Of a stretch of DNA of 28,160 nt, positions 11,521-18,670 are shown piece after piece. This stretch comes from Candidatus Peribacteria bacterium. Its GTDB lineage: Bacteria > Patescibacteriota > Gracilibacteria > Peribacterales > Peribacteraceae. The stretch spans positions 1 through 28,160 of the forward strand of contig JAAYXY010000012.1 of the NCBI GenBank assembly GCA_012515645.1. The letters are read 5' to 3'. Both the position numbers and the translations under genes were made by a program. Each line of letters starts with the position of its first letter. Position 1 is the first letter of the stretch. The notes under the pieces were generated by a model that saw nothing but the letters and a program-made list of their open reading frames with translations, ran no database searches and was not told the DNA's origin.

Positions 11521-12559
11521 AAAACTGCCGCAAAAACCGCATATCTCCCTCAAAGAGCATTTTGATGCTGGGAATCTGATGCTTGATCATTACCAGCCGA
11601 TCAATACCGAAGCCAAAGGCGAATCCCTGCCACGTCGGATTAAGCTGACGTGGCGTGACACCATCGCCTTCTTCGACGTCAATGCCACAATTCTTCAGTA
11701 CGTTTGGGTGCACCATGCCGCAGCCCACCACCTCCAGCCAGTTCCCTTCGCGTGTCTGCTCGTCGCCCTGCCACCGGATGTCCATTTCCAGACCCGGTTC
11801 CACGAACGGGAAGTAGCCAGTCCGAAAACGGTACTCTACGTCTCTGCCCAGCAGTTCCCGCACGGCGTTCACCATGACCGCCTTCATGTTTGCCAGTGAA
11901 ACGTCCTTGCCGATCATCAGACCTTCCAGCTGGTGGAATACGGGCGAATGCGTCGCATCGGCATCTTTGCGGTATACCTTGCCCATGCAGATCATGCGCA
12001 GCGGCGGCTTGTGCTCGCGCATGTAGCGGATTTGCACAGGGGACGTGTGCGTCCGCAGAACGCGTTTGTCCTTGCCCTGCACCCAGAATGTATCCTGCGC
12101 GTCCCGGGCGGGATGGTCCGGCGGAATATTGAGCATGTCGAAGTTCATTTCCTCGGATTCCACTTCGGGGCCGGTTGCCACATCAAAACCCATGCGGCCG
12201 AACACATCGGCGGCATGTTCCATGAACGATGGGATTAAATGCAGGCTCCCGCGTTCCCGAGGAGGCAGCGAGAGTGTTATGTCCATGGCATCGCTGCTGG
12301 CCAAAGCATCATCCGAAGGATGCAGCAGAGCGGTTCGTTGCTCCGCAATAGTTTCCGTCAGCTGTTTCTTCCATGTATTCAATTCTTGTGCTTGCTGCTT
12401 CTTCCCTTCCGCATCCAGATCTTTAAGCGCCTTCATGGCGAGTGTCATGGCGCCTTCTTTGCGGCCAAACAGCTCATGTTCCAGGGTATCAAGTGCTTCC
12501 GGAGTGTGCGCTTCCCGTATGCGATCGATGTATGCCGACCATGGGTTTGCTTGTGCCAC
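11519..12559 (-). CDS. pheS: Phenylalanine--tRNA ligase alpha subunit
   Basis: HPARDAQDTF, LRTHTSPVQ, THSPVFHQLEG, YFPFVEP, GFAFGFGIDRL. GTG start lies 6 nt after TAGGAT. Confidence 0.97.
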   Translation of the reverse strand: MAQANPWSAYIDRIREAHTPEALDTLEHELFGRKEGAMTLAMKALKDLDAEGKKQQAQELNTWKKQLTETIAEQRTALLHPSDDALASSDAMDITLSLPPRERGSLHLIPSFMEHAADVFGRMGFDVATGPEVESEEMNFDMLNIPPDHPARDAQDTFWVQGKDKRVLRTHTSPVQIRYMREHKPPLRMICMGKVYRKDADATHSPVFHQLEGLMIGKDVSLANMKAVMVNAVRELLGRDVEYRFRTGYFPFVEPGLEMDIRWQGDEQTREGNWLEVVGCGMVHPNVLKNCGIDVEEGDGVTPRQLNPTWQGFAFGFGIDRLVMIKHQIPSIKMLFEGDMRFLRQF

Positions 12560-13020: not shown

Positions 13021-13626
13021 TTAGGATGAGGATTGGGAATCGGGAGTTGGGAGTGGGGAGTGGGAATCGAGGAATTGTTTGAGGGCCGCAAAGTCGTCGA
13101 AAAGCGTTTGGCGAAGGTTGCCGTTGTGTAGTGCAGCTGCGGGATGGTAGATGGGAAAAATCGTGATGCTCTTGGCATCATCCTGCTGTGGAGCCAGTAC
13201 ATGTGGCTTGCCGTGGGCGGCGGTCATGCCGAGACGGGGGAGGAAATGCCCCAGGGCATGGCGCCCCAGAGGCACGATGATTTCTGGTTGAATGATGGCG
13301 ATTTCCAGCTGGAGCCATGGCATGCACTGCTGTTTTTCCTCATCGGTGGGATCGCGATTATCCGGTGGCCGATATTTGACCACGTTGCTGATGTATACTT
13401 CGTTGCGCTTCAGTCCAATAGACTGCAGAAGTTCATCCAGCAGCTTGCCGGCCGGTCCAACAAACGGTCGTTTGAGTTCATCTTCCTTCTTGCCGGGTGC
13501 TTCCCCTATGAACATGACCCGCGCGTGCGGATCGCCTTCGCCAAGGACAGGATTCGCGTGCTCTGCAAGCGCGCAGCCGTTCCACTGTTGCAGTTGTTCC
13601 TGGAGTTCCGTCAGTGTGAGTTGCAT
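13021..13626 (-). CDS. Uracil-DNA glycosylase, family 4-like
   Basis: GEGDPHA, FIGEAPG, PFVGPAG, PPDNRDP, YHPAA. ATG 13626 lies 6 nt after TG-G-TAGGAT. Confidence 0.92.
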
Positions 13627-13693
13627 GAGCAAATCCTACCACAGGGTGCGCGGGACGCTTAGGGCACATGTGATACAGAATTCTTCGGCACTC

Positions 13694-14035
13694 TTACGGC
13701 GTCATGATGTTCAACAGTTGCGCTCGTGTATGCAATTGTTGCATCAAAGCGGGATTGCATGGCCTGCGTACATGGATCTGGTCCAGTGCGTTCCATAAAA
13801 ACGATTCCAATTCTGCTATGTCACTTTCTGCTAGAGCGTGCTGCTGCATGCTTGTAGCATGCCATTCAGATAGGGCGCACAAGAGGTCGAAAACCGCTTC
13901 GCGCGCGTCGACTCTCGCGAGGTGCAGCACAAGGGGGTGCACGTTCGACTGCGATTCCAGCGAACCCACGCGTGCGATTGCAGGAAGGAGTTTTTTGTCG
14001 ATGCCAGTGCGCAGAGCATGCAGCCCGGTGGGCAT
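13694..14035 (-). CDS. Hypothetical protein
   Basis: 113-aa helical-looking ORF filling the gap between purE and udg, same strand. No recognised motif. Confidence 0.5.
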
Positions 14036-14641: not shown

Positions 14642-14699
14642 TGCGGGCATTGTGCTGGCGCATTGTTGCACGTCAAACATTTGTCGGAGTTGTTGGTGT

Positions 14700-14798
<99 letters not shown>

Positions 14799-15835: not shown

Positions 15836-15905
15836 TTCTTGGCATATCTGTTTGTTGCGTTTTGCATGGTGACAAATACAGGTGTTTCCTGTACAACAGG
15901 AGCGC

Positions 15906-16592
15906 ATGCTGTGGTTCACACAACAGAAGCCTGCATTTTTCCAGGCAACAAAACAGGAGCAGGTCGAGACGATTGACCGGCTTATCTCACAGGGGACGGT
16001 ACGTAGCGGTTACTATTTGATTTTGCTCCTGGCGACGCTCATTGTGACGCCTGGGCTCTTCCTGAACAATATGCCGATCGTTATCGGTGGCATGATTCTT
16101 GCGCCGCTTCTCATCCCGGTGCTGTCCCTTTCTCTGTCGCTTGTCACAGGTACCTGGCGTGGAGCGCTGCGTTCTCTGCGTATTCTCGTGCTCTCTTTCC
16201 TCATGGTGGTGGGAACGGCGGCTGTACTCGCTATTATCATAGGGCATGCAATGCACGAGGTGCCGTGGTATCCGCAGGACATGAATCCTGGCATTTATAT
16301 TTTCGTGGCATTCTGTTCGGGGATTGCCGGTGCGTTCGCATGGATCAAAGAAGACATGTCGCCAGCAATTGCCGGAGTCGCTACTGCGGTATCACTCCTG
16401 CCGCCTTTATGCATAGCCGGCATCAGTGCTGCAGGTTTGCAGTGGCAGCTCATGCAGGCATCCCTCATTGTCTTCGTCGCAAATTTTCTGGGTATTTGTA
16501 TGGCAGCTTTCCTGGTGTTCTGGCTTCTGGGTTTCCTGCGTGCAGGAAAGACGGAAGAGAAAATTTTAGATCGACATGCGGTGAAAGCGTAG
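15906..16592 (+). CDS. DUF389 / TIGR00341-like membrane protein
   Basis: IVIGGMILAPLL, GIAGAFA, IAGVATAVSLLPPL, FVANFLGI. Start is ATG 15906 or GTG 15882. Confidence 0.85.
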   Translation: MLWFTQQKPAFFQATKQEQVETIDRLISQGTVRSGYYLILLLATLIVTPGLFLNNMPIVIGGMILAPLLIPVLSLSLSLVTGTWRGALRSLRILVLSFLMVVGTAAVLAIIIGHAMHEVPWYPQDMNPGIYIFVAFCSGIAGAFAWIKEDMSPAIAGVATAVSLLPPLCIAGISAAGLQWQLMQASLIVFVANFLGICMAAFLVFWLLGFLRAGKTEEKILDRHAVKA

Positions 16593-16596
16593 ACAG

Positions 16597-16631
16597 AAAA
16601 ATGGGCGTCTGTCCGCTAGGGGCAGACGCCC
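16597..16631 (-). terminator. Rho-independent terminator on the minus strand
   Basis: 12-bp stem (16603-16614/16620-16631) followed on the minus strand by ATTTTT. It could also stop DUF389 transcription on the plus strand. Confidence 0.65.
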
Positions 16632-16985
16632 GACCTCCCTACGTGTGGCGCGATTGCATGAGCGCGCCGCTCTATTGGTGTTTGATGGGTTGCCCTTTGG
16701 TGAGCCCGGGCCGGCTTCCCGTTTCCGGGAGGTGTGTGTTTGGATGTCTGTATCCGGCAGCCAGTGGCTGCCGGATAAAGGCAGGGAGGGAGGAGAAGTG
16801 GCTTTTCAACCCGCACTTTCGGAGGTTAGACCCCCGAAAGTGCGGGAGCCTGGACTGCGTCCAGGTGTAGAACCGGGCTCCGGCGAGAGCACGAAGCGCG
16901 AGGCCGCGTGCACCGCAAGATTGCCTGGTGCCACTCCTCCTCTCTCCCCGCAGGAGGAGGTTGCGATGATCAAAAGGAACGAAAT
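16597..16985 (-). ncRNA. Candidate ~390-nt structured non-coding RNA (unknown family)
   Basis: At least seven hairpins (two perfect 13-bp), a ~22-bp long-range helix, extended -10 TGgTAGAAT at 17000-16992 and a terminal hairpin with U-tract. Strand and ends are inferred. Confidence 0.5.
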
Positions 16986-17028
16986 CTATTCATTCTACCA
17001 CAAACACGGTTGGTGGACAATCCTATGA
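16966..17028 (+). CDS. Possible 20-aa peptide MIKRNEIYSFYHKHGWWTIL
   Basis: AGGAGGAGG SD (16952-16960) lies 5 nt before the ATG. No other coding evidence. Confidence 0.35.
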   Translation: MIKRNEIYSFYHKHGWWTIL

Positions 17029-17045
17029 TCGGTTACCATGGTTCC

Positions 17046-17633
17046 ATGGGAAATACGCAACTCGGCAAGCTTGTGCTCATCATCGGTCCAAGCGGTGTTG
17101 GGAAGAGCGTGGTGCTGCACCGCCTGCGTCAATTGCATCCAGAAATGGTGTTTCCACGTTCGGCAACCACCCGCGAACGCAGAAAAGGGGAGGGGAGCGA
17201 CCTATACCATTTTGTGACGGAAGAGGAATTCGATGCGCTTGTGGAGCGCGGTGGTGTGCTGGAATGGGCGGTAGTGCATGGGGGTGCACGGTATGGCACG
17301 CTGCGCGAAGAGATTATTCCGGCAATCGAAGAGGGCAAAACAGTGGTGCGGGAAGTGGATGTGCAGGGATTTGATAGCATTCGCAACCACGCGTTCTTCC
17401 GGGGGCAGGATGCGCCGTATCTTCTGCAGTCGGTCTTCATCCTGCCCGAGAGCACAGATCAGCTCGTCGAGCGCATTCGCAACCGTGCCCCCATCGACGC
17501 GGACGAACTGGCCAGACGTATCGCCAGCATGGAGCAAGAGCTCACCTATGCCGATCTCTGCGATCACCGTATCGTGAATCGCCAGGGTGCACTGGAACAG
17601 ACGATTGCGCAGGTTGAGGCAGCAATAAAGTAA
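17046..17633 (+). CDS. gmk: Guanylate kinase
   Basis: GPSGVGKS, SATTRERRKGE, LEWAVVHG, YGT, DVQG. ATG lies 6 nt after TACCAT. Confidence 0.95.
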   Translation: MGNTQLGKLVLIIGPSGVGKSVVLHRLRQLHPEMVFPRSATTRERRKGEGSDLYHFVTEEEFDALVERGGVLEWAVVHGGARYGTLREEIIPAIEEGKTVVREVDVQGFDSIRNHAFFRGQDAPYLLQSVFILPESTDQLVERIRNRAPIDADELARRIASMEQELTYADLCDHRIVNRQGALEQTIAQVEAAIK

Positions 17634-17677
17634 GCGCTTTTGCGTGCATGCTCATTACAGGTCAGTAGAATGCTTGC

Positions 17678-18670
17678 ATGCCGCGTCCGAATATCGCTCT
17701 CCTGTATGTTGGCGGGTCCATCGGCATGAAAATGAATCAGAAAACTGGACGGATTGAACCGATCGAATCTCTCATTGAAATTCACAGGTTCCTCCCGGAA
17801 CTGCAGCGTGAGGTTGCTCTCAAGTTCTTCTCGCTCACGAACGTGGGTTCTTCTGAAGTGATGCCCGAACACTGGGCAGAGGTAGCACGCACTATTGAAT
17901 CGATCTATGACGAATTCGACGGTTTTGTCGTTGTGCACGGTACCAATACGATGAGTTACACGGCAGCAGCACTGAGTTTTGCGCTGCAGGGACTCAGCAA
18001 GCCGATCGTGATGACCGGGGCGATACTACCCATCAATGATATTGCAGGCGATGGTCGCATGAATTTGATCTACGCTATTCGCACAGCGCAACTCGATATT
18101 GCGGAAGTCTGTGTAGTTCTGGGACCGCAGGCACTCCGCGGTACGCGCATAAAGAAGGTGGACCAGTCGCTTTTCCGGACATTCGATACGCCCTCAATGG
18201 CCCCGCTAGCGCAGTTCAATTCCCGGGTGCATCTCTCCCCGGAACGCATGGTACGCCGCAAGCGGACGATGCACTGTCACCCGCACTTCGACGACAATGT
18301 CGTGCTCATAACCCTACATCCCGGTATGAGTGCCACGTACCTCGATGCCATTCTTGCGGCCAGACCACACGGCATCGTACTGCGCACATTCGGGCCCGGT
18401 ATGATCCCAAAGAACCTCTTCCCATGGATTAAAAAAGTGGCGCATGCGGACATACCGTTACTCATCACATCGCAGGCGTTGCGGGGGAAAGTAGATCTCT
18501 CGCGCTACCGCAAGCAGATGGCGTTCGAAAAACTGGGGGTGATCTCTGGCAAGAACATGACCTATGAATGTGCTATCGTAAAGCTGATGTGGGCGCTAAA
18601 GCAGTCAAAGAACCTGCGCCGCATCCGCATGCTCATGGAAGAAAACCTGGCAGGGGAATTAGATCCGTAG
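17678..18670 (+). CDS. ansA: L-asparaginase type I-like protein (variant active site)
   Basis: YVGGSIGM, HGTNTMSY, KPIVMTGA, C-terminal GIVLRTFGPG and MTYECAIVKL. Confidence 0.8.
   Translation: MPRPNIALLYVGGSIGMKMNQKTGRIEPIESLIEIHRFLPELQREVALKFFSLTNVGSSEVMPEHWAEVARTIESIYDEFDGFVVVHGTNTMSYTAAALSFALQGLSKPIVMTGAILPINDIAGDGRMNLIYAIRTAQLDIAEVCVVLGPQALRGTRIKKVDQSLFRTFDTPSMAPLAQFNSRVHLSPERMVRRKRTMHCHPHFDDNVVLITLHPGMSATYLDAILAARPHGIVLRTFGPGMIPKNLFPWIKKVAHADIPLLITSQALRGKVDLSRYRKQMAFEKLGVISGKNMTYECAIVKLMWALKQSKNLRRIRMLMEENLAGELDP

Follow-up and report, generated by a model that had tools for sequence, protein, structure and literature searches.

A Candidate Large Structured Noncoding RNA Gene Divergent from gmk in the Peribacterales

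The DNA analyzed here, referred to as the window, is a 28,160-nucleotide stretch of a Candidatus Peribacteria genome (NCBI GenBank assembly GCA_012515645.1, contig JAAYXY010000012.1, positions 1 to 28,160 of the forward strand). A 432-base gap in this window separates the gene for a DUF389 membrane protein (15882-16592, plus strand) from the guanylate kinase gene gmk (17025-17633, plus strand). Positions 16597-17020, within this gap, very probably constitute an independent minus-strand gene for a structured noncoding RNA (ncRNA), a degree of confidence that covers the identity of the element and not its function. The predicted primary transcript is about 390 nucleotides (nt) long and runs from about 16986, a start inferred from the promoter, to about 16597. 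The mature RNA probably ends near 16635, which gives a length of ~350 nt. As judged from its homologs, the gene is conserved throughout the order Peribacterales, which consists of the one family Peribacteraceae, in the Candidate Phyla Radiation (CPR). What is new is the RNA family itself, together with its fold and host group; the broader category of orphan large structured ncRNAs is familiar.

A sequence-only reading of the window had offered three interpretations of this region: an undescribed structured RNA transcribed as a minus-strand unit, a very divergent housekeeping RNA, or a non-autonomous mobile element. The first is the one that the present analysis supports, through a conserved promoter and terminator, covariation in every helix tested, and the lack of any corresponding Rfam family. 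The element is single copy in the genome from which the window derives, an assembly of 754 kb in 123 contigs that is 78% complete. Read on the promoter-bearing strand of the window, the DUF389 gene lies antisense to the 3' side of the RNA gene.

The Predicted Transcription Unit

A consensus scan found only one promoter-like site in 1.9 kb, and this site is on the minus strand. It consists of a -35 box, TTGTCC (17015-17020), separated by 5 bases from the oppositely oriented start codon of gmk, a 17-base spacer, and the -10 box TAGAAT with a TG extension (TGgTAGAAT, 16992-17000). The extended -10 box had been recognized in the sequence-only reading; the scan recovered it and added the -35 box. 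Conservation of the promoter was assessed in an alignment of 44 sequences, termed A1, which is blind to structure and is read on the minus strand of the window. The family pattern in A1 is TTG, 17 bases, and TGnTAnAnT, with the spacer fixed at 17. The TTG of the -35 box is conserved as T in 44/44, T in 38/44, and G in 40/44 sequences, and the four conserved -10 positions as T (44/44), A (44/44), A (41/44), and T (44/44); the TG extension is less uniform (T in 33/44, G in 36/44). These frequencies describe a near-consensus sigma-70 promoter with an extended -10 box, which is predicted to drive the gene. From the distance to the -10 box, transcription is predicted to start at ~16986, so that the RNA would begin with a single-stranded 5' leader (16962-16986, minus strand). 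The leader reads GAUUUCGUUCCUUUU in the window and is nearly invariant in A1, with the consensus GAUUUGCUCUUU.

At the other end, the gene is predicted to finish in an intrinsic terminator (16597-16631, minus strand), in which a hairpin (16631-16603) is followed by an A and then by UUUUU (16601-16597). This is the hairpin with a run of five U residues that had been noted previously, and the U tract exists on the minus strand only; no T tract follows the terminator hairpin on the plus strand of the window. A stable hairpin followed by a T-rich tract is found in 41/44 homologs, 32-163 bases past the last strand of the closing helix P1 described below. Some genera have a co-oriented asparaginase gene downstream of the RNA, and a full terminator intervenes there too. 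The neighbors downstream of the RNA vary, and a co-oriented gene, where present, has its own promoter.

The minimum-free-energy (MFE) fold of the element has -205.9 kcal/mol on the minus strand and -217.3 kcal/mol on the plus strand, against shuffle means of approximately -147 and -163 kcal/mol, respectively. The corresponding z values are -9.5 (minus) and -9.3 (plus), and 0/100 shuffles were as stable. Every stem that the sequence-only reading listed is present at the coordinates given there.

Homologs, Distribution, and Expression

A BLAST-level DNA search of relatives picked up nothing but the terminator hairpin, which two genomes carry at the syntenic location. Because this search found so little, a profile search was needed; the region upstream of gmk was taken from 57 genera of the same GTDB family and searched by iterated nhmmer. 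Full-length or near-full-length homologs were found beside gmk in ~50 of the 57 genera. Four genera depart from this arrangement, in that the element and gmk have the opposite relative orientation or have another gene between them. A covariance model of the 3' domain of the RNA, termed R1, gave one match in 13/15 genomes of the family and one match each in 120/150 further genomes of the order; among 135 genomes from the rest of the class it matched nothing. Some of the R1-negative genomes of the order hold divergent copies detectable by nhmmer. R1 also gave a weak second match of 32 bits at 13580-13701 of locus L226 (G011:C7:12900-14400). Its candidacy as a paralog was rejected by nhmmer; the site looks unrelated, with GC-rich hairpins that alternate with CA-rich strands inside a long enclosing helix.

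No known RNA family accounts for the element. At the gathering score, Rfam 15 finds three tRNAs in the window and nothing on the element, where even a search at E up to 10 returns only miRNA-like hairpin noise. The same search of two divergent homologs (E up to 5-10) returns hairpin noise only. The Rfam comparison that the sequence-only reading had proposed as a check on novelty therefore gives no strong match to any family, in the window or in these homologs, and agrees with its failure to find the cores of RNase P RNA, transfer-messenger RNA (tmRNA), or signal recognition particle (SRP) RNA. Within the searchable literature library, a search for a described structured RNA of Peribacteria or the CPR found nothing relevant.

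The divergent pair of gmk and the RNA gene adjoins a type I asparaginase gene in two arrangements (window 17025-18670; loci L058, L073, L087, L050, and L063). The order in the window is RNA (minus strand), gmk, and asparaginase; several genera have gmk (minus strand) first, followed by the RNA and asparaginase. The two arrangements look like an inversion of the gmk-RNA block.

The same species is present in 10 metagenome contigs, with 0-3 substitutions over 601 bases (16500-17100). The DNA sequencing runs containing the element come mainly from landfill and also from bioreactor, groundwater, soil, farm, biogas-fermenter, and biofilm samples. One metatranscriptome run contains a portion of the element, and the sole contig on the surrounding 1.1 kb covers 16635-16775 with 100% identity and a word depth of 12.9, leaving both flanking genes uncovered. 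The contig passes into Illumina adaptor at 16635, immediately past the conserved GGGAG of P1, an ending to be expected of an abundant RNA that has been trimmed back as far as P1. The break at the other end of the contig falls within the perfect palindrome of the hairpin P3 and is taken as an assembly effect.

Secondary Structure and Covariation

The comparative evidence supports an architecture in which the closing helix P1 encloses the long helix P2 with its apical domain, the hairpins P3 to P5, and an H-type pseudoknot, with the 5' leader preceding P1. All features are given below on the minus strand.

In the fold, P1 is formed by a 5' strand, ACCUCCU (16955-16961; family consensus CUCCCUACCC), and a 3' strand, AGGGAGGU (16633-16640; family consensus GGGUAGGGAG), the latter containing the probable processed 3' end at 16635. 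A duplex search for P1 in the 44 homologs gave a median of -16 kcal/mol, with the partner at a median of 4.5 bases before P2. Across the homologs, P1 exchanges UAG/CUA to UGG/CCA.

P2 joins a purine-rich 5' strand, GCGGGGAGAGAGGAGGAGUGGC (16930-16951), to a pyrimidine-rich 3' strand, GCCACUUCUCCUCCCUCCCUGC (16781-16802). It is identified by covariation in A1, and RNAalifold agrees. P2 is a 22-position helix with the invariant base GCAGGGAG/CUCCCUGC. On A1, 86.3% of its cells are paired, compared with 74.5% in shuffles (0/500), and the value is at most 56% when the strands are slid against each other; changes on both sides are found at 17 of the 22 positions. P2 is the long-range helix that had been proposed from the window alone, and it has 21 base pairs (bp) in the minus-strand fold and covaries in the family. 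The hairpin previously listed at 16934-16959 fares differently, as its pairing is possible as an alternative use of the same strands but is absent from the family-supported fold. P1 and the base of P2 share an AGGGAG/CUCCCU core with the strands swapped, so this alternative is always possible; it may represent a folding intermediate or a switch.

The variable apical domain inside P2 (16803-16929) contains hairpins at 16929-16872, 16865-16849 (7 bp), and 16846-16810 (17 bp). It is large in the subtype to which the window belongs and much shorter in other subtypes. For 14 homologs of the former, RNAalifold on a plain MAFFT alignment predicts 44 pairs in this domain, 25 of them with compensatory changes.

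The 3' domain consists, from 5' to 3', of P3, the single strand CA1, P4, P5, the single strand CA2, and the pseudoknot. P3 (16748-16780) is a 14-bp hairpin in the fold and is variable in the family. P4 (16715-16732) carries a GAAA loop in the window, where the fold pairs 16730-16717; the loop varies in the family, and all five pairs (5/5) show changes on both sides. P5 (16692-16711) has the family consensus GCCCGA-N4-UCGGGC and is weaker in the window. Its four outer pairs are 100% paired and its two inner pairs 90.6%, with changes on both sides in 6/6 pairs. Between these hairpins lie CA1 and CA2, both of an (A-N)n type, ACAAACACA, in which A occupies every second position over ~11 bases. CA1 (16733-16747) has the family sequence ACAAACACACA, with A at every second position, and its columns are invariant or near-invariant in alignments A1 and A3; the copy in the window, CCAAACACACA, is degenerate. 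CA2 (16674-16687), which is CA-rich and reads CAUCAAACACCAAU in the window, is likewise conserved.

The H-type pseudoknot (16647-16672) is built from two stems, S1 (16672-16670 with 16662-16660, GAG/CUC) and S2 (16668-16663 with 16652-16647, GGCGCG/CGCGCC). Across the family, S1 has 3-4 bp and S2 has 5-6 bp, and the 5' strand of S2 is the loop of S1. Covariation is seen in 6/6 pairs of S2, and 90% of its cells are paired. S1 is 76% paired in columns that the model did not fit; its middle pair is G-C in 19, A-U in 13, and G-U in 6 sequences, and in the most divergent genera S1 becomes GCGG/CCGC. At this site, the minus-strand MFE fold of the window pairs 16670-16645.

In a model-guided alignment of 46 sequences, changes on both sides occur in all 17 nested pairs of the 3' domain (17/17). 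The fraction of paired cells is 90.2%, compared with 66.1% in shuffles, and 165 cells carry changes on both sides, compared with 45 in shuffles (0/500). The signal has a sharp peak at slide 0 and collapses when the partners are slid by one column. Plain MAFFT followed by RNAalifold predicts no pairs in the 3' domain because the hairpins are misaligned, a problem that the covariance model solved. Wobble pairs in this domain, read on the minus strand, number 36 G.U against 22 A.C, and one G.U pair in the P2 apical domain is invariant (14/14). This excess and the invariant pair mean that the wobble statistics mostly agree with transcription of the minus strand.

Weighing the Alternatives

Several observations weigh against a minus-strand RNA gene with the structure described. 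The alignment of the 3' domain was fitted to the structure, which inflates its pair counts, and the significance of covariation was judged against shuffles and slides. P2 has a conserved A.C mismatch at position 9 (31/44) that would be a G.U pair on the opposite strand, and over P2 alone A.C (68) outnumbers G.U (53); we read the mismatch as a functional irregularity of the helix. Approximately 20% of the genomes of the order give no R1 match under strict filters. The start site is known by inference from the promoter alone. Expression is represented by one short assembled contig without strand information, in which the 5' half was not recovered, and this contig could derive from DNA carry-over. 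Finally, no candidate protein partner was identified. The protein most expected to read (A-N)n strands would be Hfq (PF17209), and a search of 41 family genomes did not find it.

Of the competing explanations, two survive best, and both are improbable. The first accepts the RNA but assigns it a mainly cis-acting role, by transcriptional interference or by antisense pairing with the leader of the gmk mRNA. The geometry is suitable for such a role, as the promoter fires away from gmk with its -35 box only 5 bases from the gmk ATG, the scan found no separate gmk promoter, and a gmk transcript started upstream must cross the gene in antisense. The divergent pair also remains intact in genera whose gmk-RNA block has the reverse orientation with respect to the asparaginase gene. 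However, a cis-acting role leaves the covarying structure, the pseudoknot, and the invariant junction strands unexplained, and the arrangement differs in four genera.

The second, comparably improbable, is that the element represents a known housekeeping RNA (SRP RNA, 6S RNA, RNase P RNA, or tmRNA) in very divergent form, or a functional analog of one. It does have housekeeping habits, being single copy, strongly promoted, paired at its closing ends, and conserved across the order. This interpretation was one of the three in the sequence-only reading and is not upheld, because the genes for RNase P RNA (rnpB) and tmRNA (ssrA) as well as 6S-like candidates lie elsewhere and an SRP RNA would have no protein partner in the class. 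The inventory of housekeeping RNAs proposed as a check succeeded for rnpB and ssrA and fell short for SRP RNA, which was not found, and for 6S RNA, which reaches no curated cut-off.

RNase P RNA of type A (RF00010) has a P4 pseudoknot core and the conserved regions CR-I to CR-V, and is encoded by one gene per genome. Even at E up to 10, RF00010 does not match the element, and RNase P RNA is found elsewhere with 95 bits in the genome of the window and with 116-166 bits in 5/5 relatives. In the former genome it lies at G000:C75:3694-4131, is ~70 bases longer than the model, and scores 95.1 bits; this is under the Rfam gathering score of 100, so annotation at the gathering score would miss the gene. 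tmRNA (RF00023) forms a tRNA-like domain from both of its ends and contains a tag reading frame and pseudoknots. Neither ARAGORN nor Rfam finds tmRNA on the element, and the tmRNA of the same genome is located at G000:C116:2546-2943 (80.9 bits).

In SRP RNA (RF00169 and RF01854), a GNRA tetraloop caps helix 8, which also has conserved symmetric and asymmetric loops. The SRP RNA models have no match on the element, which lacks a GNRA-capped helix-8 motif and whose P4 and P5 loops vary in length and sequence. The failure to find small or large SRP RNA in the genome of the window or its relatives could have favored the element as the missing molecule; the protein side argues otherwise. The Ffh M domain (PF02978) was not found in five genomes, and the SRP54-type GTPase domain of Ffh or FtsY (PF00448) gave nothing above noise in 81 genomes of the class. 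Two SRP subunits have been reported as absent from many CPR bacteria in a study of Vampirococcus (PMC8080830). With the proteins not found in the family or class and their loss published, there is nothing for an SRP RNA to bind. SRP RNA was rejected as an identity on these grounds, together with the mismatch between a gap that is class-wide and an RNA confined to one order. As an observation in its own right, searches of the family and of 81-101 class genomes found neither SRP RNA (small or large model) nor the SRP protein domains.

6S RNA (RF00013) is a rod of ~180 nt with a large central bubble. The 6S model has no match on the element, whose fold is a multi-branched junction with a pseudoknot. 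Sub-threshold 6S matches (32-34 bits, against a cut-off of 46.4), full-length to the model, occur at other loci in three of five near-complete relatives (G023:C2:3448-3601, G024:C1:1028077-1028232, and G013:C18:18824-18980), and these are probably the divergent 6S RNA of the family.

Slightly less probable again is a plus-strand, cis-regulatory leader of gmk, of the riboswitch or attenuator kind, with transcription entering from DUF389 or beginning at an internal promoter. A riboswitch or cis-acting leader is located in the 5' untranslated region of a co-oriented gene and provides the expression platform of that gene. In its favor, most genera have the element immediately next to the gmk start codon, folding is as good on the plus strand (z = -9.3), and the conserved A.C at P2 position 9 would be a G.U pair on that strand. 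Moreover, the scan finds no sigma-70 promoter for gmk, so that the gmk mRNA probably crosses the element. Against this, in 41-44 of the 44 homologs the invariant promoter and the T-tract terminator have the opposite direction, and on the plus strand the hairpin is not followed by a T tract. Many G.U pairs in P1 and the P2 apical domain, one of them invariant, would be A.C mismatches on the plus strand. In the window, the RNA has no co-oriented gene downstream, ending in its own terminator and facing DUF389 in antisense, and the inversion or separation of the element in four genera means that it is not a gmk leader.

The remaining two explanations are negligible. A DNA-level feature without RNA function, either a palindrome cluster or a decayed non-autonomous mobile element, would suit the several perfect 13-17 bp palindromes and the equal folding of both strands, but the mobile element of the sequence-only reading does not hold up against a single copy in the genome of the window and in each relative, a position beside gmk fixed across ~50 genera, helices that change sequence yet keep pairing, long-range P1, P2, and pseudoknot interactions that DNA palindromes do not explain, and a conserved promoter and terminator. 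Repetitive extragenic palindromic (REP) sequences and miniature inverted-repeat transposable elements (MITEs) occur in many dispersed copies, whereas this element has one copy in the genome of the window and one match per genome in 120 genomes, and no further copies at unrelated loci with target-site duplications were seen. A small protein-coding gene, either a 94-amino-acid open reading frame (ORF; ~16744-17028, plus strand) that overlaps the gmk start and is called by gene callers in at least seven public assemblies, or a 20-amino-acid peptide, MIKRNEIYSFYHKHGWWTIL, can appeal to a 127-codon open frame at 16645-17028, but there is no codon periodicity (entropy 1.02, 1.14, and 1.18 by codon position), frames on the opposite strand have open stretches of the same length and are preserved just as well, a frame over 80% of the element is kept in only 10/44 homologs, alignment gaps are not multiples of three, the ATG of the peptide is not conserved, and the translation is of low complexity over perfect hairpins. 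The 94-amino-acid ORF is very likely a spurious call, and the annotation at the RNA gene is corrected to that extent.

Relation to Known Structured RNAs

The closest parallels to the proposed RNA gene are the orphan RNAs OLE, ROOL, GOLLD, the raiA motif, and HEARO. Like these, the element spans several hundred nt, has many covarying helices and invariant junction nucleotides, is apparently transcribed on its own, is restricted to a lineage, and was found comparatively before a function was known. Of these RNAs, OLE, ROOL, and GOLLD assemble into homo-oligomers (PMC12286853). Unlike the members of this group, the element matches none of their Rfam models, has other helices and motifs, and resides in a CPR host; it occurs as one copy per genome in fixed synteny with gmk and not on phages or mobile elements.

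A second parallel is provided by CrcZ and CrcY of Pseudomonas, protein-sponge RNAs of ~400 nt in which Hfq is bound by A-rich "CA motifs" that recur along the molecule. The element resembles them in size, in its own promoter and terminator, and in repeated, conserved A-rich single strands between hairpins. In contrast to them, it has two such strands only, of the form (A-N)n and not AAnAAnAA, and its core, with a closing helix and a pseudoknot, is much more complex. A role as an Hfq sponge, which the (A-N)6 strands had suggested, was rejected because no Hfq was found in the 41 family genomes.

The abundant-type promoter, paired ends, single copy, and housekeeping-like conservation recall the RNA polymerase-binding RNAs 6S and Ms1. 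The element is not a rod with a central bubble and does not match the 6S model, and 6S-like candidates exist elsewhere in relatives. T-box leaders share with it a long multi-helix RNA and a pseudoknot before a conserved G-rich strand (GGGUAGGGAG, compared with the T-box sequence GGGUGGNACC). Differences from T-boxes are the lack of an Rfam T-box match, of a co-oriented downstream gene in the window, and of an identifiable specifier-loop architecture, as well as a constitutive terminator located well after the structure and a following gene with its own promoter.

Proposed Role

Invariant junction strands together with covarying helices, a pseudoknot and closing helix, and duplicated motifs suggest a trans-acting RNA with a compact tertiary fold. 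The duplicated motifs are the two CA strands and the AGGGAG/CUCCCU duplex core, which is present in both P1 and P2. The RNA would be a stable molecule acting in trans, and its compact junction core would present two similar binding surfaces. The most likely role, assigned tentatively, is that of a scaffold of an RNA-protein particle. A self-assembling ornate RNA in the manner of OLE, ROOL, or GOLLD is less likely, and a ribozyme or a base-pairing regulator is each at least as doubtful. Possibly, divergent or convergent transcription also affects gmk as a by-product. A search for a base-pairing seed gave no support, and this candidate was set aside, as the genome of the window shows no enrichment of sequences complementary to the CA motif or to the 5' leader. 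Exact ACAAACACA sites number nine in this genome, compared with ~6 expected from genome size. Two of the nine are on one strand and 421 bases apart, at G000:C112:12773 and 13194.

To our knowledge, large and intricately folded bacterial RNAs are rare, and nearly all of those understood are a ribozyme, the core of a ribonucleoprotein, or a self-assembling particle. It is conceivable, if well short of an even prospect, that the RNA is the founding member of a new, Peribacterales-specific class acting via its tertiary structure, as a ribozyme or as the core of an undescribed ribonucleoprotein. In either case, it would act in bacteria from which otherwise universal machinery, SRP being one example, has been lost. 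One copy per genome is kept across an order of ultra-small uncultured bacteria with genomes of ~1.2 Mb, and the retention of ~400 noncoding bases in such small genomes implies strong selection. With its promoter, ends, and secondary structure defined, and with over 150 natural variants at hand, the RNA is experimentally tractable and could be used as bait for its partners.

Other Repeats in the Window

Two further repeat features of the window lie near tRNA genes. A 29-base exact direct repeat (2605-2633 and 2687-2715), with its copies 82 bases apart, is located at the 5' end of the tRNA-Gln gene. A family of palindromes of the form CCACGTCAG...CTGACGTGG occurs at 2520-2548, 11626-11654, and 14697-14725, and two of these palindromes directly follow the tRNA-Gln and tRNA-Ala genes.

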